A stretch of 15,540 nt of DNA. Source: Pseudomonadota bacterium (GTDB lineage Bacteria > UBA10199 > 2-02-FULL-44-16 > JAAZCA01). Positions within the stretch are counted from its first letter, which is position 1. Every line of letters begins with the position of its first letter. This document shows positions 1 through 15,540 of the stretch, piece by piece. Where the stretch lies: assembly GCA_043798915.1 (NCBI GenBank), contig JAZDOG010000081.1, positions 1 to 15,540 of the forward strand, read 5' to 3'. The notes beneath the pieces were generated by a model. That model had not been told where the DNA came from. It ran no database searches and saw nothing but the letters and a program-made list of their open reading frames with translations. A program made the translations under genes and the position numbers.

Positions 1-268
1 GCGTCAAGGACTCGCGGACATTGGGGGGGCGGGCTATGCCTCGCTCGATGCCGACGACGCGCCCGTTGTCGATCCATACAACGTCGATCGCGATGCGCAT
101 GCCGAGCATCCAGAGCGACCAGCGGCGGCGGAACGGAAAGATGAAAAGCATCCCGTCCGACGTCGGACGATCCCTGAAAGACAGGCCGCGCATGCGCGAT
201 AAGGCCGTGTCGGCCACCCCGACTGAAAAGGGATGTCCATCGATCTCCACGGTGCGGGTTTGTATCAT
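1..268 (-). CDS. DUF192 family protein (3' end outside window)
   Basis: Not in the ORF track; translated by hand from ATG at 268, which forms an ATGA overlap with the upstream stop at 265-267: MIQTRTVEIDGHPFSVGVADTALSRMRGLSFRDRPTSDGMLFIFPFRRRWSLWMLGMRIAIDVVWIDNGRVVGIERGIARPPNVRESLT... It matches the DUF192 pattern (vA.t...R.rGL..R....GMLF.F......WM..M...iDv.wid..g.vv.i). The frame is open to the window edge. Confidence 0.85.
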   Translation of the reverse strand, partial: MIQTRTVEIDGHPFSVGVADTALSRMRGLSFRDRPTSDGMLFIFPFRRRWSLWMLGMRIAIDVVWIDNGRVVGIERGIARPPNVRESLT

Positions 269-1659
269 TTCCCCCCTGCGGCGATCTGCGAGCCAATCCC
301 CTCCTTCAGCCTCCTGATCTCCTTCGTATCCGGCGCGCGCGCCAGAAGCGAAGCCAAAGCAAAGATCGCCGCGCCCTTCCCTCCGCCGCTCTCCAGCGCG
401 AGCCTCCCAAGCGAGGCATAGGCCGGGGCATATGATGGGTCGGCCTCTATCGCGTCGCGGAAGAGCCTCGCGGCACCGGCGGGATCCGCCTCTCTGGTCG
501 CGAGCCCCAGCTCATGCGCAGCGATTGCGCCGCTTGTCCCGCAGAATGGCACGCCCGCTCCCCGCGCGACCGATGCAGCCGCGGCTGCATCGCCGCCGAT
601 CCGCGCGGCGCGGATGCGGAGCGCAGCCGCGAGATTCGATCCACCCTCCGCTTTCGAGAGGATTTTTTCGGCGCCGGCTGCATCTCCTTCCGCCAGATCC
701 ATCCGGGCAAGCGCGAGGAGGGCAAAAAATCCGTCCCTCCTCTTCGCGAAGCGCCGATAGATTTTTCTGGCTTCGTCGTCTGCATCCTCGCGCTCGAGGA
801 GCATCGCGCGGGCAAATTCCTCCATCGCGGACGATCCGCTCACTTCCATGGCACCGCCGCCATCGAGCAATGATGCCAGCGAAAGGAATATGCGTTCGGC
901 ATCACCTGCACCTGCGCGGGCCGCCACGTTCGCAAACCTTCGGGGCTCCTCTGCAACTCCAGGACACGAACCACGGCCGTCGAGAAATGCGTAGAGCGAG
1001 CGCGCCGCAACGAGCCTTGCCTGAGCAGCGAATGAATCCGGCTCCTTCGAGAGCCTGGCACGGATTGCTGCGATGACGCTGGGCGAGGGGAGCCAATCGG
1101 CATCCGCGGTGAAATCATCATCTGCCCTTCCTTTCAAGCCGTGTCGCTCCGGCGCAGCTGTGCGCAAACCGCCGGCCATTCCCCGGCACTCGAAGAACAC
1201 CTCGATGAAGCGACCGGACGGCGCGGAGCACGAGACCTCCATGATAGAGCCGCCGGAGGGCACGAGGATGACGAGGCCGAGGGATGCAACTCCCGCCCCA
1301 CCTCCGCGCGCCGCCGCTATATCGAAGGATGCCGCGAGCGCCTTCCCCTCGACCGCAGAGATATCGTCGACCGACTTGAGGAGCGCGCCGCCGAACTCGC
1401 GCGCAACTGTGAGGGCGATGAGATCGCGCGAAGGCGCGCCGACGGGTTCATTCATCCGCTTAACGCGCGCGCGGCCGCCACTGCCGTCACGGAGTTCCAC
1501 GACGACATCGCCGAAGCCCTCCGCAATTTTCCACCCTGCCGGTATTTCGAACGCGACGCCGCGGACAGGATCAATAAATCTCCCCTGTGCCCCAAATGCA
1601 TCAGGCACAAAAAGCTGAAGCACCGCGAGCACAAAGAGACATACTGAAGCTCGTTTCAT
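265..1659 (-). CDS. Exported protein, 464 aa: signal peptide, PsbP/Mog1-like N-terminal domain (tentative), C-terminal TPR-like repeats
   Basis: Start moved from 1830 to ATG 1659 (GGGAGG RBS, ATGA overlap with the upstream stop). Signal peptide MKRASVCLFVLAVLQLFVPDAFGA. FIDPVRGVAFEIPAGW resembles the start of PsbP-like domains. TPR-like segments include LALARMDLAEGDAAGAEKILSKA and AARLFRDAIEADPSYAPAYASLGRL. Confidence 0.7.
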   Translation of the reverse strand: MKRASVCLFVLAVLQLFVPDAFGAQGRFIDPVRGVAFEIPAGWKIAEGFGDVVVELRDGSGGRARVKRMNEPVGAPSRDLIALTVAREFGGALLKSVDDISAVEGKALAASFDIAAARGGGAGVASLGLVILVPSGGSIMEVSCSAPSGRFIEVFFECRGMAGGLRTAAPERHGLKGRADDDFTADADWLPSPSVIAAIRARLSKEPDSFAAQARLVAARSLYAFLDGRGSCPGVAEEPRRFANVAARAGAGDAERIFLSLASLLDGGGAMEVSGSSAMEEFARAMLLEREDADDEARKIYRRFAKRRDGFFALLALARMDLAEGDAAGAEKILSKAEGGSNLAAALRIRAARIGGDAAAAASVARGAGVPFCGTSGAIAAHELGLATREADPAGAARLFRDAIEADPSYAPAYASLGRLALESGGGKGAAIFALASLLARAPDTKEIRRLKEGIGSQIAAGGK

Positions 1660-2882
1660 GGCCGATGCCTCCCTTCGTCGCCGGCGCCCTTGCATCGGCG
1701 CACCCCTTCCGCCGCAGACTCGGAGGCGGATGGATCGAGCGCGGAGAGGGCGGAGGATATTTCCTCGTAGATCGGCAGCGCGCGGCCGCAGCCGGAGAAC
1801 CTCTCGGCCGACAGCGCGCCCGAGAGCCATCTGCCCGCCGCGGATTTGATCGACGCATCGATCCTCGCCTTGAGAGAGGCGGCCGCGTTGCCAGCGCCGG
1901 CATCGGTTGCAGCTTGAACCTCCGCCCTCGCCCTGCCGAGGCGAGAGACCGCCTCTCTTGCATCCAGCGAATCGACTGAGGAGAGCATGGCTCCGATCGC
2001 CGCAAGGCGCGGCGCCGCATCGTCCCTGACGCTCGCCGCGAGAGAAACGCGCGCCTCATCGAGCGGCCCTGCAAACGTCGGCCTGATCCCACCGGCTCGC
2101 AGGATCTCAGCCGCTCGGTCGAGCGCACTTTTGGCGCCAACGAGATCGCCCAGACCTTTTAGCCTCATCCCATCTTTGAAAAGTGCGAGCGCCTCTTCTT
2201 CACTGCCTGAGGATAATTCATCGCCATATGAACTCTCGGATTTTTTTCCGGCAGCTTGGGCGTCATCGCCGCTATTGAGCTCTTCAAGCAGACGCCTTGC
2301 CTCAGCATCCTCTGGCGCGGATTCCGTGGTCTCGATGAGCGCCAGCCTCGCCTGTTCGATCCGCCCCGCGCGGAGATGATCGCGAGCCTCTTCGATGAGC
2401 CTCGTGGCACTCACAACCGAAACTGCCTGGGCTGCCGGAGCCGGGTCAACAGCGACCGGCAAGGGATACGATGGAGCGGCAACAGGTCCGCGCTGAAATA
2501 TCGCAGCCATCGTCGCGATTGCCAGAAGGAAAGCCATCGCTCCGAACAGACACACGCGCCGGCTGATGCGCGCGCGCCACGGAACCCTCGAATCCGCGAC
2601 CGAGAGGCGCGTGAGCCCCAGCGCGATAGCATCGCCCGGCCCAATCGCTCCGATCCGTTCATCCCTGCCCGCCAGGGCCGCATCCTGGAGCGCCGCGCAG
2701 ACAAGCCCCCTGGAGCGCCGCGCGAAGACGGCGTAGGCGATCTGCCCCGGGGCAACCTCCTTCACAAGGCACAGGCCCTCGCGCGAAGATGAAAGAAAGA
2801 GCATGCCCTCGCGGCCAAACTCCGCTTCGAGAGGCGCCCGGCCATCCTGCATCTCGAGCTTCAACCTCATCGCTCTCTTCAT
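1656..2882 (-). CDS. Bitopic membrane protein, 408 aa: N-terminal beta-rich (degenerate FHA-like?) domain, one TM helix, Pro/Ala linker, TPR-like helical domain
   Basis: Start moved from 3134 to ATG 2882 (AGAGGGGG RBS, ATGA overlap). TM helix VCLFGAMAFLLAIATMAAIF. TPR-like segments LIEEARDHLRAGRIEQARLALIETTESAPEDAEARRLLEEL and ALALFKDGMRLKGLGDLVGAKSALDRAAEI. IGPGDAIALGLTRLSV resembles the end of an FHA fold. Confidence 0.7.
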   Translation of the reverse strand: MKRAMRLKLEMQDGRAPLEAEFGREGMLFLSSSREGLCLVKEVAPGQIAYAVFARRSRGLVCAALQDAALAGRDERIGAIGPGDAIALGLTRLSVADSRVPWRARISRRVCLFGAMAFLLAIATMAAIFQRGPVAAPSYPLPVAVDPAPAAQAVSVVSATRLIEEARDHLRAGRIEQARLALIETTESAPEDAEARRLLEELNSGDDAQAAGKKSESSYGDELSSGSEEEALALFKDGMRLKGLGDLVGAKSALDRAAEILRAGGIRPTFAGPLDEARVSLAASVRDDAAPRLAAIGAMLSSVDSLDAREAVSRLGRARAEVQAATDAGAGNAAASLKARIDASIKSAAGRWLSGALSAERFSGCGRALPIYEEISSALSALDPSASESAAEGVRRCKGAGDEGRHRP

Positions 2883-3286
2883 TGCGCCCCCTCTGCGCGG
2901 ATTCTCGCGAGGCGCTCCTCTGCGCGGAGAAACCGCCTCGGGTCGCCCGCCACCGACGCCTCCGACACCTCCGCTTCGATCTTCTGCGTGAGCGCGCCGC
3001 GCCTTCGTGCGATTGCGGAGATGAGGGCTTCGCCTTCCTCGGAGGGATGAAGCGCGTTTGAGAGCGCGGCAGAAGCCGAAGCCCGGTCGAGCATCCCGCC
3101 GCGAAGCGCGGCCCTCCCCTCGCGCGAGAGCCACGACGCGAGCTCACCGGCCGCGGAGATCGGCTCCGCGGAAGCTTCGGGCGCGGCGTCCGCCGGGTCG
3201 CGCGCGCCGATGTGCACCGATCCGGCCACAGCGAGCACGAGCCCCAGCGCCAGCGCCGGGAATATCGCGATCCTCTTTTTCAGCAT
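2879..3286 (-). CDS. Small membrane-anchored or exported helical protein, 135 aa, with a TPR-like hairpin
   Basis: Start moved from 3580 to ATG 3286 (GGAGG RBS; ATGCTGA overlap with the upstream stop). N-terminus MLKKRIAIFPALALGLVLAVAGSVHIG is basic then hydrophobic. Helical segment ASWLSREGRAALRGGMLDRASASAALSNALHPS. Confidence 0.65.
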   Translation of the reverse strand: MLKKRIAIFPALALGLVLAVAGSVHIGARDPADAAPEASAEPISAAGELASWLSREGRAALRGGMLDRASASAALSNALHPSEEGEALISAIARRRGALTQKIEAEVSEASVAGDPRRFLRAEERLARIRAEGAQ

Positions 3287-3726
3287 GTTTTTTCCTCCAG
3301 CGTCATCAGGACGCAGTCGCCGGCCGGCGCGGAGAAGCAGAACATCTGCCGGCCGCCCCAGGCGCACTCCCACGAAGAGCCGCGCCCCCTGCGCGCAGCT
3401 GCAGCACCTTCGAGGAAGCGCGCGGCCGATTCTGGCGGGACGATATCGACAAGATGTGCGCCGCTGCCCGCACCTCCATTCGCCATCCCGCGGCCGCGGC
3501 GGCCGGCAGCGACGAGCCTCAATGAAGAATCGAAGAGGAACGTGGCGGCACCGCAGAGCGTTTCGACCGCGTCGCACCATTCGCCCTCATCAGGACCCTT
3601 GTGCGAAGCTCCGACATCGACATGCGGCTCCGCAGCGTCATCCGCGCGCGGATTTTTTCGCGTGCAGATCGCCGCCGCAATTGCGACTCCCACTATCAGC
3701 CAGCCTGTGAACCCCGCGATCGTCAT
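3280..3726 (-). CDS. Hypothetical protein, 148 aa: N-terminal TM helix plus PAS-like domain
   Basis: Fills the gap between tadC and the next gene (10 nt gap upstream, 7 nt overlap downstream). TM helix AGFTGWLIVGVAIAAAIC. The segment ATFLFDSSLRLVAAG...GAHLVDIVPPESAARFLEGAAAARRG...GGRQMF..SAP.GDCVLMTLE follows the PAS fold pattern. The RBS is weak. Confidence 0.6.
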   Translation of the reverse strand: MTIAGFTGWLIVGVAIAAAICTRKNPRADDAAEPHVDVGASHKGPDEGEWCDAVETLCGAATFLFDSSLRLVAAGRRGRGMANGGAGSGAHLVDIVPPESAARFLEGAAAARRGRGSSWECAWGGRQMFCFSAPAGDCVLMTLEEKTC

Positions 3727-3736
3727 GATGTCCGAT

Positions 3737-4639
3737 TCAGAAAAGGGCGCCCAAGCCGCCTGTTGCCAGGCGCACGATCAGCGGCCCGAAGATGACGATG
3801 AACGTCGCCGGCATTATGCAGATCGCCAGCGGGATGAGCGCCTTCTGCTGCGCGGCCACACCCTTGCGCTCCGCTTGCGCAAAGCGCTCGGCCCTGAGCC
3901 TCACCGAGAGCGTGCGCAGCACCGGACCGATCCCGCCGCCCAGCGCGTCCGCCTGGATGAGCAGCGAGCAGAACGATGAGAGCGCGGGCACGCACGCGCG
4001 CCGGCCCATGACGGCGAGCGCCTCGCGCCGCTGCGTCCCCATCCTGATTGCGGATTCGAGGCGCGCCAGCTCTGATTTCAAAGGCCCGTTCTTCAGCCGC
4101 GCGGCGATGCGGCCGAGCGCCTCCGCAAAATCGAGGCCGGCCTCCACCGAGAGGGCCAGCCAGTCGAGCGCTCCGGGGAGCTCGAGCTCGATGGCCGCGC
4201 GGCGGCGGCGCACCTTGGCCCTAAGCCACAGCGTCGCAGCGAACCACCCGAGCGCCGCGCCCAACACGGCCCTGAGTGGCAACGGCATATTGAAGAGCGC
4301 GATGAAGGCGAGGGCCGTAAGCATCGAAGAGGCTAACCTCATGGCGCAGAAGCCGGCGGCATCGATCGACTCATCGAGGCCGGCAGCCGCGATCATGCGC
4401 GAGAGTTTTTCTCCATTGCGCGGGAGGCCCGCCATCGAAGCCAAAGGCAACATCCAGTGGCACATAGATATGAGCAACCACGACAGGGGCGATGCGGGGC
4501 GGGCCTTTGTCCTCATCCCGCTCGCGTGCCAGAGCCTTTGCCGCTCCCTCCTCCGCCAGATGGCCAGCAGGCCAGCCCATGCGGCGACGCCGGCAAGGAT
4601 CACGCATATGAAAAACTCAGCTACGGTATTATCGACCAC
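3737..4639 (-). CDS. tadC: Tad pilus inner-membrane platform protein TadC (T2SSF family), 300 aa
   Basis: GTG start with GGAGG RBS. T2SSF motifs ELPGALDWLALSVEAGLDFAEAL, LIQADALGGGIGPVLRTLSVRLRAERFAQAERK and LIPLAICIMPATFIVIFGP. Confidence 0.92.
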   Translation of the reverse strand: MVDNTVAEFFICVILAGVAAWAGLLAIWRRRERQRLWHASGMRTKARPASPLSWLLISMCHWMLPLASMAGLPRNGEKLSRMIAAAGLDESIDAAGFCAMRLASSMLTALAFIALFNMPLPLRAVLGAALGWFAATLWLRAKVRRRRAAIELELPGALDWLALSVEAGLDFAEALGRIAARLKNGPLKSELARLESAIRMGTQRREALAVMGRRACVPALSSFCSLLIQADALGGGIGPVLRTLSVRLRAERFAQAERKGVAAQQKALIPLAICIMPATFIVIFGPLIVRLATGGLGALF

Positions 4640-5238
4640 GCGGCCTCCATCTCGCTTGTCAGCCCGCCCTCTTTGGATGCGTCGCGCCAGAGCGCAGGCG
4701 TGATTTTGCGGACGATGCGCAGGCGCCCGGCGAGCGGGGATCCGCTCTTCGCATCGAATATCGCGACACCCTCGCCCTCAATGGCGACAAACCGCGCGCC
4801 GACATTTGCAAGAGCCGCCGTCGCCGCCTCGTCCGGCGGCGCATCCTCCCGCGGAATCTTCCCGCCGATTTTGAAGCTCCGCGCTGAGACGTCCCGGCGG
4901 GGAAAACTGACAGGGCGGGGATCGGAGAATTCGATCTTCGCCTCGATAGGAGGCAGCTCGCGATCGGCGATGAAAACCGGCGCATCGGATTGGCCGCCCT
5001 GCCCTCCAGCGGACGGATTCAGGGGAAGCGAGAGGATGCGCGACGGAAGGTCCTGCCACAGAATCCGGGATGGCTCGATGCCGCCGGGCGATTGCCTCCG
5101 CCTGACGACCATGCGGCGCTCCTGTATCTTTCCGCCCTCCTTCATTATAGAGACGGTGCGGTAGCCCGTATCCCCAAGGCCCATCGAGAGCGATGATGAA
5201 GCTAATATAATGATAGCGATGAGCCAGATCCTCCGCAT
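4621..5238 (-). CDS. Hypothetical exported protein, 205 aa, between tadB and tadC
   Basis: GAGGGAG RBS, signal-peptide-like N-terminus MRRIWLIAIIILASSSLSMG, 10 nt gap after the tadB stop and 19 nt overlap with the tadC start. No family recognised. Confidence 0.65.
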   Translation of the reverse strand: MRRIWLIAIIILASSSLSMGLGDTGYRTVSIMKEGGKIQERRMVVRRRQSPGGIEPSRILWQDLPSRILSLPLNPSAGGQGGQSDAPVFIADRELPPIEAKIEFSDPRPVSFPRRDVSARSFKIGGKIPREDAPPDEAATAALANVGARFVAIEGEGVAIFDAKSGSPLAGRLRIVRKITPALWRDASKEGGLTSEMEAAWSIIP

Positions 5239-5248
5239 GTCGTCTCCC

Positions 5249-6022
5249 TCACACTCTGATCATCACGATGCTCCTCAGCCACGCCGCGCCGAGCGCTTCG
5301 AGCAGGATTCCGAACGCGACCAGGAGGTGCCCCAGGCGCGTGGCCACCAGCGGCTCGATGTAATCCGGCGCCACCATATAGAGCGCCACCCCGAGCAGCC
5401 ACGGCATGGCAAGCAGCATGGCGCCTTGATAGACCCCCTGCGCGGTCAGCACGCGGATGCGCTCCTCGACGTGGAGCCTCCCTTCGACTGTCGCCGCGAG
5501 CGTGCCGAAGGTCTCGATCAGGTTGCCGCCCGTGCGCCGGAGCACCTCGACCGACTGGACAACGAGGCAGACGTCCTCCGTCGGGACTCGCTCTGCGAGG
5601 ATCGCAAGCGCCTCTTCCGCGGTGCGGCCGAGCTTGAGCTGCGCCACGACGCTCACGAGTTCCCCGCCTAGCGGGGATGCGAGTTCGAGCGAGGCCATCT
5701 CGAGCGCCTGCGCGAGCGAGAGCCCGGCCCTCATCGCGTTTCCGATGAGCGCCAGCGCGTCCGGGAGCTGCCGGTCCGCGGCGATGAGCCTCCTCTTTCT
5801 GATGACTGCAAGCAGCAGTACGACGGCGGGAGCGAATAGCGAAAGCGCGGAGCATATCCTCGGGGAGAGCTGCACGCCGGCCGTGTCGGCCTCCCGGGCG
5901 ACCCGGTCGCGGCCGCGCAAGATGAGCGGCGCAGCGCACGGGACAAGACGCGCCAGGGCAAAGGCCAGGGCCGCGGCCGCAATGGCCGCCGAGATAATGA
6001 ATGCCATCTTGAGTATCGGCAT
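5249..6022 (-). CDS. tadB: Tad pilus inner-membrane platform protein TadB (T2SSF family), 257 aa
   Basis: Motifs [53 protein letters not shown] and [11 protein letters not shown]. It directly follows the ATPase gene and has a GAGGGAG RBS. Confidence 0.92.
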
Positions 6023-6031
6023 ATCTCTCCC

Positions 6032-7990
6032 TCACAGCGCGGGAAGTTCTATTCCCCGCGCCGCAAGCTTTTCAGCGAAGCGCGGCTTGAGGCCGGTGGG
6101 CGTTAGTTTCCCATCGTCCGGCGAGATCGCTGCGAGCGTCTGCATGCATGGAGTCGCCCCCTCCATGCCGGTGAACTCGGATATCTCCACAACGCGGCGC
6201 ATGCCGTCCCGCCGCGCCACCTGCACCACGAGATTGACGGCGCGGACGATCTGCTCGCGCACGGAGACGAGAGGAAGCTCCATGCCGGCCATGAGCACCA
6301 TCGTCTCGAGTCTGGCCAGCGCGTCGCGCGGCGAGTTTGCGTGGACGGTCGTGAGCGAACCCTCGTGCCCGGTGTTCATCGCCTGGAGCATGTCGAGCGC
6401 CTCCGGGCCGCGGCACTCGCCGACGACGATCCGGTCCGGCCTCATCCGGAGGGCATTGCGCACGAGGTCGCGTATGGCAACCGCGCCGGCGCCATCGAGC
6501 CCCGGCGGTCTTGATTCGAGCCTCACCACGTGAGGAAGCGGGATGAAGAGCTCGGCCGCATCCTCTATTGTAACGACGCGCTCCGCGGGATCGATCCGCG
6601 CCGCGAGCAGCCCCAGGAGTGTCGTCTTCCCCGCTCCGGTGCCGCCGGAGATCACCATCGAGACGCGCGCGCGGATGCACGCGGAGAGAAACGCGCCGGC
6701 GCCCTGCGTGAGCATGCCGCCGGACACCGCGTCGTCCATCCCCCTCACCCTCCTCAAAAATCTCCGGATCGTCACGGCTGGGCCGTCGATCGAAAGCGGC
6801 GGAATGATGACGTTCAGGCGTGAACCGTCGGGGAGCCTCGCGTCCACCATAGGGGACGATTCGTCTATGCGTCGGCCCGTCCGCGCGACCATGCGCTCTA
6901 TCACCGCCATGAGGTGCGCCTCGTCGGCGAATTTTAGAGCGACCGAGTTCACTCGTCCCTGCCGCTCCGCCCAGACGCGCTCGGGCCCGTTGACCATGAC
7001 CTCGGTCACCTCTGGATCGGAGAGCAGCGACTCGATTGGGCCGAACCCGACGGAATCGTCGACGACCCTCTTCACGACAGACTCGGGAGAGAGGCCCGCG
7101 AGTTCCGACGGATCGATGCCGGCGAGCAGGCGGCGCGCGGCCGCGGCGACGCGGCGGCGGAACGACTCCTCCGCGGCCCGGTCGCCCGAGGGCACGCGGA
7201 GATCCTTGAACTCGTGGTCGGCGCGGAGCTCTCCGAGGATTTTTCTCACCGCCGTTTCACATCTGTCATCGCAGGCTTTTGCATCTGGAGATATTTTTTC
7301 TTCGATTTCATGGGATGCGGACTCGCTGGATGCAGGATGCGGCTCCGCCTTGGGCACTGCGACCGCTCTCTCGATCAAACGCAGGGCCAGCCGCTCGATC
7401 TCCTCCGCGCCGCCCCAGAAGGCGAGCTTCCATCTGCGAGACAGCCTCGCGGCCATGGCGGTGTCGGCACTGGAGTTCCAGCCGCCGGAAGAGCCGAGGG
7501 CAAATCCGGCCGGGTGCGCGGAGACATCGTCCTCGAGCATGCGGTCCATCATCCGGCCCGCAGCTGCGAGCCCGCCTTCCGCGGAGACATCCGCCACGAC
7601 GAGCGCCGGCAAAGCCGGCAGCGCCTGCGCAGCGATCAAAAGCGATTCCGGTCCGATCGCGAAGAGGATTATATCGAAGACGCGCGAAATATTTGCGAGC
7701 GGGGCTGCATCGACTGGACCGTCGCAAGCTACGGCGGCGACGGAACCGTTTGGGGAAAGAAAGCCGACGAGGGCCTGGGCCTCGAGACCGCCGAGGTGCA
7801 CGAGGAGTTCGCTCCATGCCCTTGTCCCGCTCCGCTTCGCAGCACCCCCTGAGGCATCTATTATAAGGGGCGTCTTACCACGCGCCGAGAACCACGACGC
7901 CACGCCGCGGGCAAGGGAAGCGGCGGAGGATCCGTCTGCGGGATCGGCGATTGCAAAGCAGCGCGCGCGCGATGCGCCGTCTCGATTCAT
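6032..7990 (-). CDS. cpaF: Tad pilus assembly ATPase CpaF/TadA with an N-terminal degenerate MinD/CpaE(TadZ)-like domain, about 652 aa
   Basis: [44 protein letters not shown], Walker [10 protein letters not shown], Asp box TIEDAAEL, Walker [16 protein letters not shown] and His box [17 protein letters not shown] 7990 is preferred over 7996 because of the 8 nt spacing from GAGGAGG and the ATGA overlap with the secretin stop. Confidence 0.95.
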
Positions 7991-9513
7991 CGCCATTTCC
8001 TCCTCTGCGGCCGGCGCGTCTCGGATGCAGCCGCGCCGCCATCGACGTCCGCCTCTTTGACGTCTCCGCCGCGGCGGCCGGCCAGATATGATCCATACTC
8101 CTTCTTCGATCGGTCGCGGATCATCGACTCCTCGGTCGCGAGGAATTCCTTGAGTTCTGCCTCCGCCGGCGTCGGCTGCTCCACGAGCCTTGGCGTCACG
8201 AAGATCACGAATTCGGACCGGTTCGACTGGAAGTCCTTCGAGAGGAAGAGGGCGAAGAGCGCCGATGAGGTGTCGAGATCCCGAGGGACGCGGTTTCTCA
8301 TCTTCACTTCGCCGTTCCTCACGATGTTGCCGAGCACCAGGCTCTGGCCGAATTTGCAGATCGCGCTCGTCGAGACGGTGTTCGTGTCGATGGCGCCCCG
8401 GAGGTCCGCCGTCGGCGAGGAGAGGGTCGCGGTGAGCTTCACGTCAACGCCGCCGGCCACCTCTATCGGAGTCGCCTCGATGTCTATCCCCATCTTTTTG
8501 AACTGCACGTCCTGGCCCTTGTAATAGGGGACCTCCGTCCCGCTGAATATCTTCGCGTCCTCTCCGCTCTTGACGACGATCGACGGATTTTCGAGCACCC
8601 GGCCGTCGCCGCGCTCGCGCACGAGTTGGAGCTTCGGCACAAGCTGGAAGACGAAGCCGATCAGTTCCTTCCCTAAGCCGCTGATGGATGAGAGCAGCCC
8701 CGCGCCGCTGCCGTTTCCGGCGTTGGCATGCCCGCCCGATGGGAAGGCGCCGGGCGCCCAGTTGATGCCCAGCTGCCTCAGCGCCGACTTCTTGATCTCC
8801 ATCATGTGGAAGGTGAGCTCGATCATCTTTCCGCGGCCGACCTGCCTCTTCGTGTCGCGCGCGTCGATCAGGTCCAAAACCTCGGGCGAGTAGAGCTTTG
8901 CTATCTCCACGGCGCGCTTTGCGTCGGCCTGGCTGTAGGCCACGCCCTCGAGGACGATGCGGTCGCGAACGGAGCGGACCGTCACGCCAGGAACGTCGAT
9001 CGATTTCGCGATGGCGTCTGCGAGCTGGCCGATCGCGTCGTGAGCGAGCCTGATGCGGCTCCTGATCCGCGGGTCTTGGCGGGCCACGCCTTCGATGTGG
9101 CGGAAGTCCTCCGGCTCGGCGACCTCGCCAGTCACCTCCACGTGTCCGTTCTGCACGCTGACCTTCACGCCGGAGAGTTCGCCGAATTCGCTCTTCGCCT
9201 TGTCGAGGACCTCCTTGAGGGACGTCGTCACGACCCTCACCTGGAACTCGTCTCGCTTGGCGCCAGCGGCATCCCACACCGTGACCATCGTCTCGCCGCC
9301 GCCGCGCGCGTTCACATAGATGGAGCGGCGGTCCTGCGAGACGATGTAGTCGCACACGCCGGGATCAGCCACGGCGACGTCGCCCACGTCGTAGCCGAGT
9401 TCGACGGTCGTCGACTGCCCCTTCATGAGGGACTGCGACGAGATGGCCGCCGCTGCCGGAATCGCAGTGCCGATGATCGCTGCCGCCATAATCGAAGATA
9501 TTATCAATCGCAT
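7987..9513 (-). CDS. cpaC: Tad secretin CpaC/RcpA, 508 aa: signal peptide, pilus-formation N-terminal domain, two BON-like domains, secretin domain
   Basis: DVGDVAVADPGVCD...YVNARGGGETMVTVWD (CpaC N-domain); two BON-like repeats (VKVSVQNGHVEVTGEV and VTVRSVRDRIVLEGVAYSQADAKRAVEIA); secretin motifs EIKKSALRQLGINW, RVLENPSIVVKSGEDAKIFSGTEVP and SEFVIFVTP. AAGGAG RBS. Confidence 0.92.
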   Translation of the reverse strand: MRLIISSIMAAAIIGTAIPAAAAISSQSLMKGQSTTVELGYDVGDVAVADPGVCDYIVSQDRRSIYVNARGGGETMVTVWDAAGAKRDEFQVRVVTTSLKEVLDKAKSEFGELSGVKVSVQNGHVEVTGEVAEPEDFRHIEGVARQDPRIRSRIRLAHDAIGQLADAIAKSIDVPGVTVRSVRDRIVLEGVAYSQADAKRAVEIAKLYSPEVLDLIDARDTKRQVGRGKMIELTFHMMEIKKSALRQLGINWAPGAFPSGGHANAGNGSGAGLLSSISGLGKELIGFVFQLVPKLQLVRERGDGRVLENPSIVVKSGEDAKIFSGTEVPYYKGQDVQFKKMGIDIEATPIEVAGGVDVKLTATLSSPTADLRGAIDTNTVSTSAICKFGQSLVLGNIVRNGEVKMRNRVPRDLDTSSALFALFLSKDFQSNRSEFVIFVTPRLVEQPTPAEAELKEFLATEESMIRDRSKKEYGSYLAGRRGGDVKEADVDGGAAASETRRPQRRKWR

Positions 9514-9540
9514 AGACGCTCCTTGGCTGATAGCTGCTTT

Positions 9541-10386
9541 TTATCTCCCCTTGTATTCCCGATATCCCTTTTTCATCGGCACGAGTTCGTCGTGACCGCC
9601 GGTGATCGTCGCGATCGTCGTAGGCGGGGTGCGCTCCGCGCCGGCATCGTCGCCCCAGGCGCGAAGCGCGACGGTGAGCGCACCGGACTCGCGCGCAAAG
9701 GCGAGCGCCTGCGCCTCGGCAGGCGTGACGGCGAGCGTGGCGGTCGCCTGCGCTCGACCGGGGACCATGGCCTGGCCGCCGAACATGCCTCCCTTTGCGG
9801 CGGCGCTCTTCGGCGCCGGCAGCGCATCGGCGATCTCGCTGCCGACGGCGAGAACCTGCACATCCTCGACGATGGTGAGAGTGGTGCGCCGGACCGAAGA
9901 CTCCTGCCCGAGATCGAACGTGGCCATCACATCGACCACGTCGTAGGGCTTTATGATTCCGGAGGAGCCCGCCGCGTCGTCGAGCGGAATGGCCACCGCC
10001 CTCCTCCCGGCGGGTATGACCGCCGCGAGCCCGCGAGCATCGCCGACGCGGCGCGCGTTGGCTGGCGTCATGTGCGCGCCGGCTCTGATGGGGACGACGG
10101 CGACGCGGCCGGCTGCGTCAGAAACGGATGAGAAGGCGGCGGGCTGGACGAACCGCCGAGGCACGCGCGCCATGCCGATCGCGTTCTCGTCGATCGCCTC
10201 GCCAGCGGCGATGTCGCGCGCGGCGACCGCCACGCCCACTGGCTCGGCCACGCTCATAATACTCGCCTCGCGGCTGCCGAGGTAGCCAGCTGCAAAGAGG
10301 CAGGCGGCCAGCGCTGAGACGCACGCGACCAGGAGCGGCTTCTGTTTTACGATTTCACCAATCTGCACAGATCGGATCTGAAACAA
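9541..10386 (-). CDS. cpaB: Flp pilus assembly protein CpaB/RcpC (SAF domain), 281 aa
   Basis: N-terminal TM helix; SAF domain VAVAARDIAAGEAI; LAAVIPAGRRAVAIPLDDAAGSSGIIKPYDVVDV; IVEDVQVLAVG; ATLAVTPAEAQALAFA...GALTVALR. The TTG start is preceded by a strong SD (AGGAGGTGA). Confidence 0.93.
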   Translation of the reverse strand: MFQIRSVQIGEIVKQKPLLVACVSALAACLFAAGYLGSREASIMSVAEPVGVAVAARDIAAGEAIDENAIGMARVPRRFVQPAAFSSVSDAAGRVAVVPIRAGAHMTPANARRVGDARGLAAVIPAGRRAVAIPLDDAAGSSGIIKPYDVVDVMATFDLGQESSVRRTTLTIVEDVQVLAVGSEIADALPAPKSAAAKGGMFGGQAMVPGRAQATATLAVTPAEAQALAFARESGALTVALRAWGDDAGAERTPPTTIATITGGHDELVPMKKGYREYKGR

Positions 10387-10696
10387 TTTTCACCTCCTGC
10401 GGCGCGCTAATTTCCCGGCGCAGCTTGCCAGCGCCTATGGCGACTGGCTCCCCGCCGTGGACGAACGAAACTTTTCCCATCTTCTCGATGCACATCCTTT
10501 GAAAACCCTGGCCCAGGTGCGACGCGTCCCACTCGCGGAGCGCCGCCGACGCCTCCGCCTCAGCGGACGCAACGTCGTGCACACCCTGCGTGAAGAGCGC
10601 CGCGAACTGTATAATGATAAGAAAGAAGAGCGCCGCCAGCGGCGTCATCGCCGCAACCTCGATCATCGCGTTGCCTCTGTTCCCTTTGAGATTCAA
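10355..10696 (-). CDS. TadE/TadF-like minor pilin, about 113 aa
   Basis: Class III signal RG|NAMIE (Glu at +5) followed by a hydrophobic helix. Probable TTG start at 10696 (TTGA overlap with the upstream stop, GAGGA RBS). Two Cys (RMCIE, PICADW) could form a disulfide. Confidence 0.75.
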   Translation of the reverse strand: MNLKGNRGNAMIEVAAMTPLAALFFLIIIQFAALFTQGVHDVASAEAEASAALREWDASHLGQGFQRMCIEKMGKVSFVHGGEPVAIGAGKLRREISAPQEVKIVSDPICADW

Positions 10697-11547
10697 TGCC
10701 GCATTTCCTCGTACCCGGCGCCCAGCGTCCACATCGGCACGAGCGCCGCGTGGTAGAGTTCGTCGGACCCCTCTGCCGATATCTGGTCCCTGGCCTCGCT
10801 CACGGTGTCAGTGGCCTTCAGCGCAAAGTTTCTGACTGAACCGCCGAAGGCCTGCGCGGCGGCAGAGGCGCTGATCTCCACATGGTCGAAGAATTTGCCC
10901 AGCAGCATCGGCCTGATCGTTTCGCTGGCGAGCACACCGATCGTCGCATCGGGCCCCTTGGGTTTGACAAGGTAGCTCTTGTGGTCGTAGCTCTTTGTCT
11001 CTACAGACGTTGGATCTAAATAATCCGTTCCGGTGACATAGCTATAGTCCACGTGCCCGTCCTGTTCCTGTTCCTCACTATCCGAGAGAAATACCCCTCC
11101 GGGCAAAACGGTGCGACCGGTTGAATTGGGCGCGTTCGCCGCGAGGAGATTCAGCGCATAGGCGTTGGCCCGTGCCGGCATTTCATCCTGAATCTCCCTG
11201 ATGTTTTCGGAATCCACATCGTACCCGCGTTTGAATGAGGCGATGCGCCTCTGGGATGTCGCTTTGGTCTGCTGCGAGTCGCTGCCAAATTCGCTCACTA
11301 GATTGCGCCAGTCTTTGTATATCCGCCAGTTCTGGAAGGATATCTCATTAAGCGCATCCGCCAGCACGACGGCGCCCACATATGCCGCTCGATCGGCGGC
11401 GGCCTCGAGCCTCGCCCGTGCGACGGCTATGCGCCCGAGGTCGATGGCGAGCGCCAACATCACCACCATGAGCGGAACGGCGATCATGATGAGCACCGCC
11501 ACGCTCCCCCGCTCTTTTCCCGCGGATTTTCTCACGGATAATCGCAT
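10693..11547 (-). CDS. tadG: TadG-like (Tad domain) minor pilin, about 284 aa, no vWA domain seen
   Basis: ERG|SVAVLIMIAVPLMVVMLALAIDLGRIAVARARLEAAADRAAYVGA is the typical Tad N-terminal motif (D.G......LQ.AAD.AA..GA). ATG 11547 has a GGGAGG RBS. Confidence 0.82.
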   Translation of the reverse strand: MRLSVRKSAGKERGSVAVLIMIAVPLMVVMLALAIDLGRIAVARARLEAAADRAAYVGAVVLADALNEISFQNWRIYKDWRNLVSEFGSDSQQTKATSQRRIASFKRGYDVDSENIREIQDEMPARANAYALNLLAANAPNSTGRTVLPGGVFLSDSEEQEQDGHVDYSYVTGTDYLDPTSVETKSYDHKSYLVKPKGPDATIGVLASETIRPMLLGKFFDHVEISASAAAQAFGGSVRNFALKATDTVSEARDQISAEGSDELYHAALVPMWTLGAGYEEMRH

Positions 11548-11975
11548 GCGCGATATCCTCCCGAATCGTTGCAATATGGCGCCGGAGTGTCGCCTCCTTG
11601 GAGCACCGCATCGGAGAGGCCGGGGGTCAACGCATCCGCCCTCGGGCTCTCCCTCCAGAGCAGGCGGGCGGGACCGAGCGCCGGGATATTGATAAGCGAA
11701 TTGGCGACCGCCACGATTTTCACCGGCTGAGAGGCATCGCTGGCCTCTGTGAGCCCCCCGCGAAAGAGAGGACGATCGAGCATCGCATAGAGTTCCACAT
11801 CGGCGAGGTCGCCCTGATAGACGGCTGAGACGCGCGCTGCGCGCATCGCCGCGTGCTGTGCCATGGCGCTCCTCACTCCCGTGAGCGCACCCTCGAAGAC
11901 GACGAAGATGAGCAGGAGCGCCATCGGCAGGACGATGGCGAATTCGACAAGCGATTGGCCTCTCGCATATCTCAT
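11532..11975 (-). CDS. tadE: TadE-like minor pilin, 147 aa
   Basis: RG|QSLVEFAIVLPMALLLIFVVFEGA...AQHAAMRAAR is the TadE signature. ATG 11975 has a GAGG RBS and lies 11 nt after the flp stop. C-terminal Cys pair YCNDSGGYRAC. Confidence 0.88.
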   Translation of the reverse strand: MRYARGQSLVEFAIVLPMALLLIFVVFEGALTGVRSAMAQHAAMRAARVSAVYQGDLADVELYAMLDRPLFRGGLTEASDASQPVKIVAVANSLINIPALGPARLLWRESPRADALTPGLSDAVLQGGDTPAPYCNDSGGYRACDYP

Positions 11976-11986
11976 GGGCCGCCTCA

Positions 11987-12184
11987 CTAGTTTGGATTCG
12001 ACATCGGCTGGTTCGTCGTGAGCCAGCCCGAGACGTTCTGCGCGAGCTGCGCTATCGCCTGGTTGAACGTCGGGATGAAGTGGCTCGCCGCAGCCACGAG
12101 CCCCAGCACCAGGACTGCCACGATCAGCATGTACTCCGTCGCGGCCTGCCCCTTCCTGTTCCCAACCCTCTTCATGATCGACAT
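11987..12184 (-). CDS. flp: Flp family type IVc major pilin, 65 aa
   Basis: MSIMKRVGNRKG|QAATEYMLIVAVLVLGLVAAA contains the Gly cleavage site, Glu+5/Tyr+6 Flp motif and hydrophobic helix. Strong RBS AAAAAAAGGAGG before ATG 12184. Confidence 0.93.
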   Translation of the reverse strand: MSIMKRVGNRKGQAATEYMLIVAVLVLGLVAAASHFIPTFNQAIAQLAQNVSGWLTTNQPMSNPN

Positions 12185-12369: not shown

Positions 12370-15300
12370 TCAGCGGGGAGGCGCGGAACCGGCGGGGGCG
12401 CTGCCGGGCCCGCCTTTGCGGCCCTTGGACTTAACTTGTTTGCCCGGCGTCTTGCCCCCGGGGCGCGCTGTCGTCCCGGATTTTTCCGGGTGGTGCCTTT
12501 TTGCCGGCCTCTTTCCATCCTTCGCGGCGACCACCAGCTCTTTGAGGCGCTTAAATAGCGGCGCGGCTGACAATATTGGCTCAATCTCCTGGGCGAGCCC
12601 CAGCTCTTCGAGCACCTTCCATAGCGGCAGCGCCTTGACTTTTGCTGTGGCATCCGCATCGAGTGCGATGCCCATTTTTTCATGGACGGACAGCATCCTG
12701 CCTTTCAAAACAGCCACAATTTCGCGCCTTCCCTCCTCGTTGAGGAGGTCCCACAATCCTTTGAGCTTTCCAAATTGATTTTGCATGTCCTTATTCAGAA
12801 AATCAGAGAGGAATCCGATGCCGACCCTTCGAGCGAACTTAAGGATTATGTCGTCACCAATGACAAGGGTCTGCTGGAGTCGATCCAGTGCCGAGAAGTA
12901 TGCCTGCATCCCTTCAAATGTGTCTGCGGCGAATTCGTCCGCTGTATTTTGAATACGCCCCAGGACATACATGAAACGCCAGACGAACGCCCGCCGCAGC
13001 TCATCCGTAACAAGCTCGGGATGCTTGAGTATTGTCTCTGCCCCTTCGCTCAGTTCCCATGGAGTCGTAAAGCTCCGGAACCTTGCCACCTTATAAAGCG
13101 TCTGCACTCCCTCTCTGCCATAGGTGTGTTCGAGGAAATACTTGATGTCGCGATACTGGCTGGGGCGCAGGATATAGAGGAGGGCCCCCACCTCTTCGCC
13201 GGCGCTGCCGCCGAGCGACCGGGCGACATAACGGGAATTATCTATCATCCGGATGGTTCGCGAGAAATCGTTCGATATCCCGGCCGACAACCGCGAAATC
13301 GCCTCCCTCAACGGAGCATCGTCCGCCCGCAGCTTTGCCAAGACATCCGCCACTGCGCTTCGCAAACTCCTGATCTGTGCCCCGCTTGTGCTCATAGCTC
13401 GGCTTCTGAGATCAAACTCGTCAGCAGAAATATGTCCAATAAATGTGTTCAGGTTAGTTGGTCCGTCCAGGCCAAACGCCAGTTCCGCCGCCTGTTCGAC
13501 AACAGCCAGTATCTCGCCGTGCACCATATCCAGATAAAAGGAGCTGTCTGCCAGCATTCTCAGATTATGTGAAATTAGAAAAGCCGGCGCATCTCCGGAT
13601 GAGGATTCGGGTAAATGTGACCGCGCTTTATACTTCTCAAACGCCCTTGCAGCTTCGGGGCCGAACACCCTGTCGATCTCCCGATCCCAAAGGCTCTGCA
13701 GACGCGCAACGACGTCCCCCTCATCGCTCATCGCCTTCACCTCGCGCAAAAGCCCGGACGTGAACCCAACCTTCTGCTGCAGCGCCCTCATCTGCGGGCT
13801 CAGCCGTCCATTGTCCTGGCCGGCGGCAAAAGGTGCGGCTGATCCGCCCGCGCCCTTGCCATCTGGCGCGCGAAATATCTTCAGCGGATCTTTTCCAAAC
13901 GGAGTGAGCGAACCTTCTTGTGCTCCAGGCAATCTTTGGAGACCTCGCACAACCGTATCGATAATATTTCGTACACCGCCAGGTTGGAGGAACGCGGCCA
14001 CTCCGGCGAGCATGTCCACGAGCTGCTCGTGGCCCGCGGTCCCCTCTGCCGGAGTGCCCCTGACAATGTCATCCGCAGCGATGCGCGCGGCATTCAACGC
14101 CCGTTCCGCCCTGGCGTGCTCCACATGCGACCGGACCTTCCCTGCGACATGCCCTGCCACGGCATGCCCGATCTTCTGTCCGACCTTGAGAACTCCCAGC
14201 GTCTTCATGTTGAGGAGAAAGTTCTGGAGGCTCCAGGCATCCTCAGGCCTCCCCTCCGAAAGGCCGACGGCGGCCTCCCAGCTCTGCAGACCCATGAACA
14301 CCACCGCCTCGGCTGAGAGATCGGCCAGCTTGTAGCCGGCCCTTTCTCCACCGTGCATTATCAGATAACACCTTTGCGCCTCACTCAGCTGTGCAGCCGG
14401 CCTCTTGAAGATCGCGAGCGAATCCCCCTCGAATGCCTTCAATGCCTCGGGGTTTCGCTTCAGGGCATTCAAAAATCCCCTCCACTCCGCTTTGGCACGG
14501 ATCGTCTTTGCAAATCCCGCCTCGAACAGCGCCTTGCCCGCGGGGATGGCCGCAAACATCAGGATGTCTTTGACCGATTCTTCCATGTAGCTGCCGGTAT
14601 GCTGTCCGCGAAGCTTGTGCCAGCCAAACTGCGTGGACGTGAATGCCTGCGCGTTGACGACGAATGCCACGGCCTGATGGAGTGCCGGGTTCGCAAGGAC
14701 CTCGCCCGCGATGATATACCTGCGCGCCTTGAGCGCCGTCGATGCCATGCGAAGGATTGCGCCCGAGGCCGCTGCAGCCGCTCCAGCGATCGCCCCGCAG
14801 ACGATGATGGACAGCGTGGATTCGAAGCCGACGTCCAGGAGCAGGTCGCGCGTGCTGTCTTTGATATGCCAGCCCTGGCCTTCAAGGCTTGCCCTCTGCG
14901 CCTCGACCTCCCTGGCCATCTCGGAGTCGATTCCTTTGGATTTCAAAAGCGCGGAGAAGATCAGGCCCGCCGCCTCGTAGGACCTGACCGACGGCCCGCG
15001 CATCCACTGCGCCGTCGCGAACAGGATGCCTGCGCGACGCGCGGGATTCGTCTCATCCGCAACCCTTCGCATCCTTGAAAAAAGCTCGTCGTTTGCCGCG
15101 ACGACCAGATCGGAATAATACTCCGCGGAACCCCTCTCTGAAAAACCGCGCTCGAAGCGTTCACCCAGGACCTCTGCATCTCCTGCCCTGTTGCCCGTCA
15201 TCCAGTTCAGAAAAGCGGCGGCCGACGAGCGCCCTGCCTTTTCCTCCTTCTGCCGCCTTGCCAGCTCGACCGCCTTCTTCTCGATGATATCGATCGCTTC

Positions 15301-15540
15301 TTTCGAACTTTTGGCCCGGCCTGAAACGAGAAGCCCGCGGATCTCATCTGCAAGGGCCTTGCGCCCCTGCGCGAAAAACTCCTCCTTCTTCCGCACAAAA
15401 TCAGACTCGGCACCCTGCATGACCGAGGCGCTGTGGAGGTCGGAGATCTGTCCGATGAGAGAAAGGGTCGCCAGCTCCGAGGCCATCTTCTCAAAGGCCT
15501 GCTGGAGCTTAGGCGTCTGGCCGAGTTTCTGTTCCACAAA
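12370..15540 (-). CDS. Very large hypothetical protein (>1055 aa, 5' end outside window), mostly alpha-helical, with central hydrophobic Ala/Gly-rich segments and a basic disordered tail
   Basis: The frame is open for more than 3.1 kb up to the window edge (15538-15540 reads TTT in frame) and the composition is protein-like. No family recognised. Confidence 0.85.
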   Translation of the reverse strand, partial: FVEQKLGQTPKLQQAFEKMASELATLSLIGQISDLHSASVMQGAESDFVRKKEEFFAQGRKALADEIRGLLVSGRAKSSKEAIDIIEKKAVELARRQKEEKAGRSSAAAFLNWMTGNRAGDAEVLGERFERGFSERGSAEYYSDLVVAANDELFSRMRRVADETNPARRAGILFATAQWMRGPSVRSYEAAGLIFSALLKSKGIDSEMAREVEAQRASLEGQGWHIKDSTRDLLLDVGFESTLSIIVCGAIAGAAAAASGAILRMASTALKARRYIIAGEVLANPALHQAVAFVVNAQAFTSTQFGWHKLRGQHTGSYMEESVKDILMFAAIPAGKALFEAGFAKTIRAKAEWRGFLNALKRNPEALKAFEGDSLAIFKRPAAQLSEAQRCYLIMHGGERAGYKLADLSAEAVVFMGLQSWEAAVGLSEGRPEDAWSLQNFLLNMKTLGVLKVGQKIGHAVAGHVAGKVRSHVEHARAERALNAARIAADDIVRGTPAEGTAGHEQLVDMLAGVAAFLQPGGVRNIIDTVVRGLQRLPGAQEGSLTPFGKDPLKIFRAPDGKGAGGSAAPFAAGQDNGRLSPQMRALQQKVGFTSGLLREVKAMSDEGDVVARLQSLWDREIDRVFGPEAARAFEKYKARSHLPESSSGDAPAFLISHNLRMLADSSFYLDMVHGEILAVVEQAAELAFGLDGPTNLNTFIGHISADEFDLRSRAMSTSGAQIRSLRSAVADVLAKLRADDAPLREAISRLSAGISNDFSRTIRMIDNSRYVARSLGGSAGEEVGALLYILRPSQYRDIKYFLEHTYGREGVQTLYKVARFRSFTTPWELSEGAETILKHPELVTDELRRAFVWRFMYVLGRIQNTADEFAADTFEGMQAYFSALDRLQQTLVIGDDIILKFARRVGIGFLSDFLNKDMQNQFGKLKGLWDLLNEEGRREIVAVLKGRMLSVHEKMGIALDADATAKVKALPLWKVLEELGLAQEIEPILSAAPLFKRLKELVVAAKDGKRPAKRHHPEKSGTTARPGGKTPGKQVKSKGRKGGPGSAPAGSAPPR

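Follow-up and report, generated by a model that had tools for sequence, protein, structure and literature searches.

We analysed a 15,540 bp stretch of bacterial DNA (contig JAZDOG010000081.1, hereafter the window), which is an entire contig, with contig ends on both sides of the locus. The window carries a genuine Tad (type IVc, Flp) pilus operon. Fifteen genes, co-oriented as the first-pass annotation of this DNA had claimed and all on the minus strand, run from the flp prepilin (11987-12184) down to a cut DUF192 gene (2-268). The operon encodes the Flp prepilin, three pilin-like proteins, CpaB, CpaC, CpaF, TadB and TadC, with five extra genes inside it and DUF192 at its end. The same annotation's view of a divergent Tad variant, with non-canonical genes closely packed among the standard ones, was borne out. 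The GC content ranged from 55 to 69% along the length of the window.

Core genes and layout of the Tad operon

Nine genes matched Tad-type families in Pfam or NCBIfam, and a tenth, the TadF-like gene, was called from its leader motif. Pfam and NCBIfam searches named the families TadE, a TadG-like N-terminal motif, CpaB, the CpaC secretin, CpaF, TadB and TadC. The core genes were as follows.

11987-12184, minus strand: flp, Flp-type major prepilin, 65 aa; leader MSIMKRVGNRKG followed by QAATEY, the G/XXXXEY motif being read directly
11532-11975, minus strand: tadE-like minor pilin, 147 aa; leader ends RG followed by QSLVEF; Pfam TadE E 1e-7, 32.4 bits against a cutoff of 22.9
10693-11547, minus strand: tadG-like protein, 284 aa, with the N-terminal Tad/TadE-G motif only; Pfam Tad (PF13400) E 6.6e-9; N-terminal hydrophobic helix
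10355-10696, minus strand: putative TadF-like second small pseudopilin; the TTG 10696 start gives the leader MNLKGNRG followed by NAMIEV and a hydrophobic helix
9541-10386, minus strand: cpaB/rcpC; TIGR03177 E 7.3e-46, 156.5 bits against a cutoff of 71; Pfam RcpC E 9.5e-27 and SAF E 9.4e-13
7987-9513, minus strand: cpaC/rcpA secretin, 508 aa; Pfam Secretin E 5.6e-18, T2SS-T3SS_pil_N E 5.6e-15 and BON E 1.4e-10
6032-7990, minus strand: cpaF/tadA ATPase, 652 aa; Pfam T2SSE E 1.3e-58; TIGR03819 E 2.5e-98, 329 bits, under the cutoff of 373
5249-6022, minus strand: tadB platform protein; Pfam T2SSF E 1.6e-9; top tblastn match in comparison locus L050 at 39% identity
3737-4639, minus strand: tadC platform protein; Pfam T2SSF E 1.5e-17

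The locus therefore holds a Flp prepilin motif, a CpaF ATPase with two T2SSF proteins, and CpaB/RcpC with the CpaC/RcpA secretin. The flp start is preceded by an AAGGAGG Shine-Dalgarno sequence, the product has one hydrophobic helix (residues 19-37) and its cleavage context is RKG followed by QAATEY. Pfam Flp_Fap did not match this prepilin; its sole Pfam match was the archaeal Class III signal peptide model (Class_IIIsignal, E 0.0031), below the cutoff. The product of 10355-10696 had no Pfam match and, from its leader and hydrophobic helix, is probably a TadF-like pseudopilin.

The window shares with the canonical Tad/Flp systems (Aggregatibacter tad, Caulobacter cpa) the Flp G/XXXXEY motif, TadE/F/G-like pseudopilins, CpaB, CpaC, CpaF, TadB, TadC and the arrangement as one co-oriented operon. 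It differs from them in the five extra genes inside the operon and in a CpaF with an N-terminal domain of about 250 residues. It also differs in that the 15 window proteins include no TadV/CpaA prepilin peptidase (no Peptidase_A24 match in Pfam or NCBIfam), no recognisable separate TadZ/CpaE (no ParA/CbiA family match in the same searches) and no lipoprotein TadD. The peptidase gene may sit outside the contig, since the contig ends on both sides.

Open reading frames (ORFs) of up to 505 aa were also present on the opposite strand, and with DNA of 65% GC this makes ORF length weak evidence for a gene. Gene calls were therefore based on family matches, ribosome sites and composition. Shine-Dalgarno sequences of the GGAG/GAGG type were read by eye at 12 of the 15 starts, and GC at the third codon position (GC3) exceeded GC at the second (GC2) in every called gene. 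GC3 was 68-70% in two of the extra genes, u408 and u464 (265-2882), compared with 84-86% in the core genes cpaC, tadB and tadC (3737-9513). Nine start/stop overlaps had been claimed for the operon and all nine were found. Four are 4-nt overlaps of the ATGA type (265-268, 1656-1659, 2879-2882 and 7987-7990), one is TTGA (10693-10696) and the others are longer, measuring 7 nt (3280-3286), 19 nt (4621-4639), 32 nt (10355-10386) and 16 nt (11532-11547). Three of the nine rest on non-ATG starts (GTG 4639, TTG 10386 and TTG 10696). The first two were accepted because each has a GGAGG-like Shine-Dalgarno sequence before it, and TTG 10696 was accepted because only this start or the upstream GTG 10732 yields a prepilin-type leader (G/NAMIE). 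For the same TadF-like gene, ATG 10666 has just AGAGG upstream and the preferred TTG 10696 has GAGGAA.

The tad genes of the window form one contiguous operon. A promoter scan gave no convincing minus-strand promoter before flp, a terminator scan of the window gave no internal terminators above chance level, and an Rfam search gave no RNA families, the region upstream of flp included. Plasmid searches with the DNA and with the u408 and u464 proteins had a 257-nt ATPase core as their sole match, and a PHROGs search of the window proteins returned nothing useful.

Extra proteins of the operon

The five extra genes and the terminal DUF192 gene are listed below, beginning with the two that could be described in structural terms.

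1656-2882, minus strand: u408, predicted bitopic inner-membrane protein; FHA-fold domain at residues 1-96, transmembrane helix at 102-130 and TPR-like helical domain at 159-404
265-1659, minus strand: u464, predicted secreted protein with a beta-rich N-domain and C-terminal TPR repeats; Pfam TPR_19 E 1.1e-5, 26.1 bits against a cutoff of 25
4621-5238, minus strand: u205, orphan of 205 aa between tadB and tadC, with an N-terminal signal-like segment; Shine-Dalgarno sequence present; GC1/2/3 62.6/52.9/74.3
3280-3726, minus strand: u148, orphan of 148 aa with an N-terminal transmembrane segment; the weakest gene call, with no Shine-Dalgarno sequence
2879-3286, minus strand: u135, orphan of 135 aa with a signal/anchor segment and an Ala/Arg-rich, probably helical remainder; Shine-Dalgarno sequence present; ATGA overlap with u408
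2-268, minus strand: DUF192 (PF02643), first 89 codons; Pfam E 1e-15, 58 bits against a cutoff of 27, model positions 1-66 of 96

An exhaustive HMMER search of 1.84 billion representatives found 43 other members of the u408 family at E<=1e-3, 33 of them at E<=1e-10. The homologues are mostly 350-404 aa long and align end to end at 22-40% identity. An alignment of 35 of the 44 listed family sequences (A1, from which nine shorter or partial ones were left out) showed that the N-domain is conserved and is followed by a hydrophobic helix and a TPR-like region; towards the C-terminus stand two cysteines, of which C397 is invariant and C365 is present in at least 90% of members. Five of the 35 (P0016, P0021, P0027, P0028 and P0040) have no N-terminal FHA-fold domain and start with a hydrophobic segment, which leaves the periplasmic domain as the part that stays constant across the family. 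AlphaFold2 run on A1 gave a model with a predicted local distance difference test score (pLDDT) of 88.1, rising to about 95 over residues 1-96. In the model, residues 1-96 contain ten strands and residues 102-130 a helix; after a disordered linker come the helices of 159-404. Searched against the PDB with Foldseek, it had six FHA entries among the 50 matches listed (CT664, Rv0020c, two of Rv1827/GarA, OdhI and GarA), with probability 1.00, target-normalised TM-scores of 0.58-0.66, 98-102 aligned columns and E values of 3.9e-3 to 7.6e-3; the remaining listed matches were TPR or 14-3-3 repeats. A feature search of the ESM Atlas placed u408 at 0.94 to FHA/Yop-YscD_cpl clusters, some of which also carry TPR.

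The model of u408 thus has the FHA beta-sandwich fold, and the conserved FHA sequence signature is absent. FHA domains carry a signature of GR, SxxH and NG; the histidine column of real FHA domains aligns with tyrosine in the u408 family and the arginine is not conserved. A local FHA hidden Markov model (HMM) matched nowhere in the window. We named the domain an FHA fold without FHA signature because its structure matches FHA and sequence models do not. u408 is accordingly modelled as a degenerate FHA-fold cytoplasmic domain, one transmembrane helix and a periplasmic TPR-like domain. As the fold comes without the phosphothreonine-binding signature, it is more likely a docking surface than a phospho-sensor.

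Homologues of u408 were also sought in a comparison set, the best 80 of at least 601 stretches from a scan of genome contigs with the window CpaF (L001-L080). Searching these 80 loci with tblastn gave no match to u408, and the A1 HMM gave weak TPR noise only in their six-frame translations. Word-index protein searches returned u408 itself alone when run with u408, and the window protein plus one known family member when run with the A1 profile, the tool being too insensitive at 25-40% identity to show absence.

Analysis of u464 confirmed TPR repeats and left its N-domain less clear. The Atlas model of the protein had a predicted TM-score (pTM) of 0.65, and its structure neighbours, at TM 0.39-0.43, included clusters in which 28% of members carry PsbP and one with the name DUF1795. 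No Pfam PsbP match was found at E<=10, and a PsbP/DUF1795-like N-domain is a lead only. No match to u464 or to the TadF-like gene was found by tblastn in the 80 loci. Both u408 and u464 share features with the TadD/PilF pilotins: the u408-family profile matches the TPR of P. aeruginosa PilF (2ho1, E 3.9e-6), and u464 has TPR repeats and a signal peptide. They differ from these pilotins in that u408 is predicted to be transmembrane-anchored with a cytoplasmic domain and u464 has an extra beta-rich N-domain.

The domain labels given to these proteins by the first-pass annotation held in part. The FHA-like/transmembrane/TPR label for u408 stands on structure and the DUF192 label on its Pfam score, although that gene is incomplete because the contig end cuts it. 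The PsbP-like/TPR label for u464 keeps its TPR half, through TPR_19, with PsbP as the lead just described. A PAS-like label for u148 found no support, as PAS_4 matched at E 0.18 and 12.5 bits, below the cutoff of 23.1, and there was no PDB sequence match. The TPR-like label for u135 likewise fell away, with no Pfam family at E<=10 and none in NCBIfam or PHROGs. For u205 no match was found in Pfam, NCBIfam, PHROGs or PDB sequences, and for u148 none in NCBIfam, PDB sequences or PHROGs. Overall, PDB sequence searches of u464, u205, u148 and a large ORF upstream of flp gave TPR noise or nothing.

The gene status of u205, u148 and u135 rests on position, an N-terminal hydrophobic segment and composition, and is weakest for u148. 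Some of the small extra ORFs, u148 and perhaps u135 or u205, could conceivably be open frames that arose by chance in GC-rich spacer DNA and not genes. The three lack both homologues in the 80 loci and family matches, no Shine-Dalgarno sequence precedes u148, the GC1/2/3 pattern of u148 is similar to that of a rival ORF on the plus strand (3212-3979), and long shadow ORFs are common in the window. However, the three frames fill their gaps exactly, with 10-nt spacers or overlaps with their neighbours, u205 and u135 have Shine-Dalgarno sequences, all three start with a hydrophobic segment and GC3 exceeds GC2 in all three. We consider chance frames quite unlikely.

Related loci and the N-terminal domain of CpaF

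The earlier note had proposed checking whether homologues of the accessory genes are linked to tad elsewhere, and for DUF192 they are. Of the 80 loci, which come from many phyla, 28 have DUF192, in every case on the tad strand; 64 of the loci were long enough to assess. In 20 of these 28 the DUF192 start lies within 600 nt of the tadC end; in the window four genes (u148, u135, u408 and u464) stand between tadC and DUF192. Adjacency of DUF192 and tadC has already been noted in a few Bacillota, according to the available part of PMC12786226. DUF192 is thus a recurrent, unnamed Tad-associated gene, and its occurrence after tadC in about a third of related loci across phyla provides a testable context for a family of unknown function.

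We scanned the first two ORFs after tadC in 59 loci (116 ORFs) and found DUF192 in 19 ORFs, Peptidase_A24 in 2 and FHA in 1. TPR proteins followed tadC or DUF192 in 4 of the 59 loci (L005, L007, L025 and L056), and kinases or response regulators followed tadC in L001, L002, L014, L028, L037 and L061. The last group fits a reading in which the extras form a regulatory module, with a small PAS-like protein and an FHA phospho-reader switching pilus assembly on envelope or phosphorylation signals. The weak PAS_4 match of u148 also points this way, and FHA domains of the type VI secretion system and of the Kil system of Myxococcus xanthus have been proposed as signalling parts, those of the kil cluster being named as signalling candidates in a review (PMC8460266, PMC12428579, as far as the available parts of these sources go). 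The window itself argues otherwise: no kinase, phosphatase, receiver or PilZ family was found among its 15 proteins by Pfam or NCBIfam, the residues of the FHA signature show no conservation across the u408 family, the PAS match is sub-threshold, and u408 and u464 are mostly periplasmic repeat scaffold. We regard a regulatory module as unlikely.

FHA domains were detected in 6 of the 80 loci, and four of the 80 carry KilF-type fusions of FHA to CpaF, one of them in a Lentisphaeria metagenome-assembled genome (MAG; L026).

L022, 9575-11326: FHA-CpaF fusion
L026, 9350-11110: FHA-CpaF fusion
L038, 783-2375: FHA-CpaF fusion
L080, 7014-8789: FHA-CpaF fusion

In L026 the fusion is followed by tadB, tadC, DUF192, a 560-aa FHA-transmembrane-helical protein and a PEGA-repeat protein; in L038, from a Proteobacteria MAG, an FHA-transmembrane-helical protein comes after FHA-CpaF. 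These two were the only loci of the 80 with such a partner. The partners share with u408 the three-part architecture and a position beside tadC/DUF192 or cpaF, and differ from it in that they carry a canonical Pfam FHA domain (E 2.3e-15 in L026), which the u408 family does not, and in that the A1 HMM gave no significant match to them. The L038 protein (2400-3415) ends with several cysteines in a helical region, recalling the u408 cysteine pair. Tad loci from Lentisphaeria, Acidobacteriota, Bacillota and further phyla likewise contain FHA partners, TPR partners and DUF192. A Tad locus can be expected to carry variable accessory genes, so an accessory module is no surprise in kind.

Residues ~277 to 651 of the window CpaF are the usual CpaF, over which the best identity among the 80 loci kept was 55-57%, and relatives closer than these may exist. 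Residues 1 to ~250 form an extra alpha/beta domain without a Walker A motif, PADGSSA standing at the Walker A place. No Pfam family matched the N-terminal 300 residues at E<=10, and no FHA was detected there by Pfam at that threshold or by the local FHA HMM. A single-sequence AlphaFold2 model (pLDDT 57) showed eight strands alternating with helices, alpha/beta and not all-beta. The extension is not FHA. Foldseek of this low-confidence model returned nothing at E<=1e-3 and only generic alpha/beta matches, and a word-index protein search found only the window's own protein, with the same insensitivity at 25-40% identity.

Intact fusions of TadZ (ParA/MinD) to CpaF, with no receiver-like domain, were present in three of the 80 loci.

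L050, 8924-11095: TadZ-CpaF fusion
L024, 4068-6176: TadZ-CpaF fusion
L045, 8261-12043: TadZ-CpaF fusion

All three were recognised by a TadZ HMM built from 56 upstream ORFs, which were chosen by position and length and not checked one by one. The loci come from one MAG titled Deltaproteobacteria, one unclassified MAG and one Eremiobacterota MAG, and TadZ-CpaF fusions therefore exist outside Bdellovibrio. L050 shares with the window the order of cpaC then long cpaF without a separate tadZ, and holds the best match among the 80 loci to the window cpaC, tadB and flp. In hhalign, residues 5-88 of the window CpaF aligned to the start of the TadZ P-loop domain at only 10% probability (E 0.0031). The extension may be a decayed TadZ (ParA/MinD-like) domain, to which its likeness is weak.

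CpaF trees drew on the comparison loci, without reference sequences from Kil, Bdellovibrio, Caulobacter or Aggregatibacter. A quick tree grouped the fused ATPases in one clade with the window elsewhere. An approximately unbiased (AU) test favoured joining the window with the fused ATPases (log-likelihood, lnL, +23.4; p-AU 0.777). In a careful tree the fused-ATPase clade dissolved and the window was unplaced on a branch of 0.85, with bootstraps not settled.

Comparison with Kil and Bdellovibrio and the role of the extra proteins

The available part of PMC8460266 describes, for the Kil system, a KilF ATPase with an N-terminal FHA domain and several canonical FHA proteins. KilD and MXAN_4648 are FHA+TPR proteins (supplementary file 1 of that paper), and proteins of this type sit beside the ATPase and platform genes, with MXAN_4649 listed alongside. 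On that account Kil and the window share a Tad-like core, the FHA+TPR protein type and secretins with the same three domain types. Kil differs in its FHA-fused ATPase and its several canonical FHA proteins, whereas the window CpaF is without FHA (Pfam at E<=10, the local FHA HMM and the alpha/beta model agree that no Kil-type fusion is present) and the window has a single FHA fold, seen only in the model. That fold belongs to the one FHA-fold/TPR protein found, u408, which was found by structure, Pfam giving none. The Kil genes lie in two clusters in the same source and those of the window in one operon. The resemblance to Kil is real in domain composition and fails one sharp test, the FHA-fused ATPase; the same components occur in phyla not known for predation.

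In Bdellovibrio bacteriovorus the ATPase is a TadZA fusion and the tad loci are without TadV, as far as the available part of the preprint describes them (bioRxiv 10.64898/2026.07.08.737194). Neighbours of tad there include TPR, FHA, PilZ and kinase genes, with PAS in the Figure 1D legend. Within the same limits, the window shares with Bdellovibrio the absence of a separate TadZ and of TadV from the locus, an N-terminally extended ATPase and TPR-/FHA-type neighbours. The Bdellovibrio extension has a Walker A-like motif and a recognised ParA/MinD domain in that description, whereas the window extension has PADGSSA and is missed by the TadZ HMM. The Bdellovibrio tad genes are described as dispersed and those of the window are contiguous.

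These likenesses bear on the proposal that the locus encodes a Tad machine of the Kil or Bdellovibrio type, specialised for killing on contact or for invading prey, whose extras sense contact or aid effector delivery. The FHA+TPR proteins by the Kil ATPase and platform genes, the neighbourhood of the Bdellovibrio tad genes with its TadZA fusion and missing TadV, and the like absence of peptidase and separate tadZ from the window all speak for it. So do the clusters nearest to u408 in the Atlas feature search, which occur most often in Acidobacteriota, Bdellovibrionota and Myxococcota, and the large unexplained co-oriented ORF just upstream of flp (12370-15540). Against it, CpaF is not FHA-fused, the single FHA-fold protein has no FHA sequence signature, and the same kinds of partner were found in loci of Lentisphaeria, Acidobacteriota and Bacillota. 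The CpaF tree gives the window no supported place (branch 0.85), the AU test allowing a fused-ATPase grouping that the careful tree dissolves, and searches of Pfam, NCBIfam, PHROGs and PDB sequences turned up no family resembling an effector. We judge a killing machine to be very unlikely. Predation or effector delivery had been suggested in the first-pass annotation and nothing here points there; predation itself is neither supported nor excluded. The trans-envelope accessory part put forward with it fared better, in that u408 is predicted to cross the inner membrane, its FHA-fold domain lying in the cytoplasm and its TPR-like domain in the periplasm; FHA and TPR are also combined in KilD and MXAN_4648.

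Our favoured reading, to which we give a probability of about 55%, is that the window holds a Tad pilus operon of a high-GC diderm, that the extra proteins belong to the pilus machine as assembly or scaffold components and not to a separate weapon, and that the product is most likely an adhesive Flp pilus. By analogy, u408 would connect the cytoplasmic components (CpaF, TadB/TadC) with those in the periplasm. The FHA-fold transmembrane proteins YscD and PrgH of type III systems and GspL of type II systems bridge the two sides of the membrane likewise. A function like that of TadD/PilF, close to the secretin, might fall to the secreted TPR protein u464. At its N-terminus CpaF would carry a decayed TadZ that stands in for a separate tadZ, on the pattern of the intact fusions in L050, L024 and L045, and the prepilin peptidase would be encoded elsewhere.

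Several results count against this reading of the operon as an adhesive pilus with added scaffold. None of the 35 A1 members matched Pfam FHA, and hhalign of A1 against eight real FHA domains gave 3% probability for a short alignment in register, so that the FHA fold of u408 comes from a predicted model and Foldseek matches at E 4e-3 to 8e-3 and not from sequence. TadD and PilF are outer-membrane lipoproteins with a lipobox cysteine, and reading the u464 sequence before and after its hydrophobic core revealed no lipobox; u408 is transmembrane-anchored, and the TPR repeats are what remains in common. The TadZ HMM did not match the N-terminus of the window CpaF, and with the hhalign probability, the model confidence and the Foldseek result given above the TadZ origin of the extension is weak. 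No homologue of u205, u148 or u135 was found by tblastn in the 80 loci, so that a scaffold role for them is conjectural and u148 is a putative gene only. The contacts of u408 with CpaF, TadB/TadC or CpaB/CpaC are putative, and the adhesive function is assumed from the family.

In a bolder version, the u408 family would be an unnamed class of Tad inner-membrane scaffold (an FHA fold that does not read phosphothreonine, a transmembrane helix and a disulfide-locked TPR domain), the counterpart of YscD/PrgH. Together with the decayed TadZ-CpaF and the three orphan envelope proteins it would make up a Kil/Bdellovibrio-like contact-dependent Tad machine from a lineage unsampled by genomes. We hold this combination to be a long shot. 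Tad pili are widespread adhesion and colonisation organelles, and the coupling of their inner-membrane platform to periplasmic and outer-membrane parts is less worked out than in type II and type IVa systems. u408 is, on its modelled structure, a concrete candidate for this inner-membrane-to-periplasm coupling, and it connects ordinary Tad loci with the machines of Kil and Bdellovibrio, which are rich in FHA.

The remaining feature of the window lies upstream of the operon.

12370-15540, minus strand: large ORF of 1056 codons, open at the contig end, co-oriented with the operon, with its stop 185 nt before flp

No match to this ORF was found in Pfam (E<=10), NCBIfam, PHROGs or PDB sequences, nor by tblastn against the 80 loci. 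It has a lower GC content (55-60%), one hydrophobic stretch and a tail rich in Lys, Pro and Gly.

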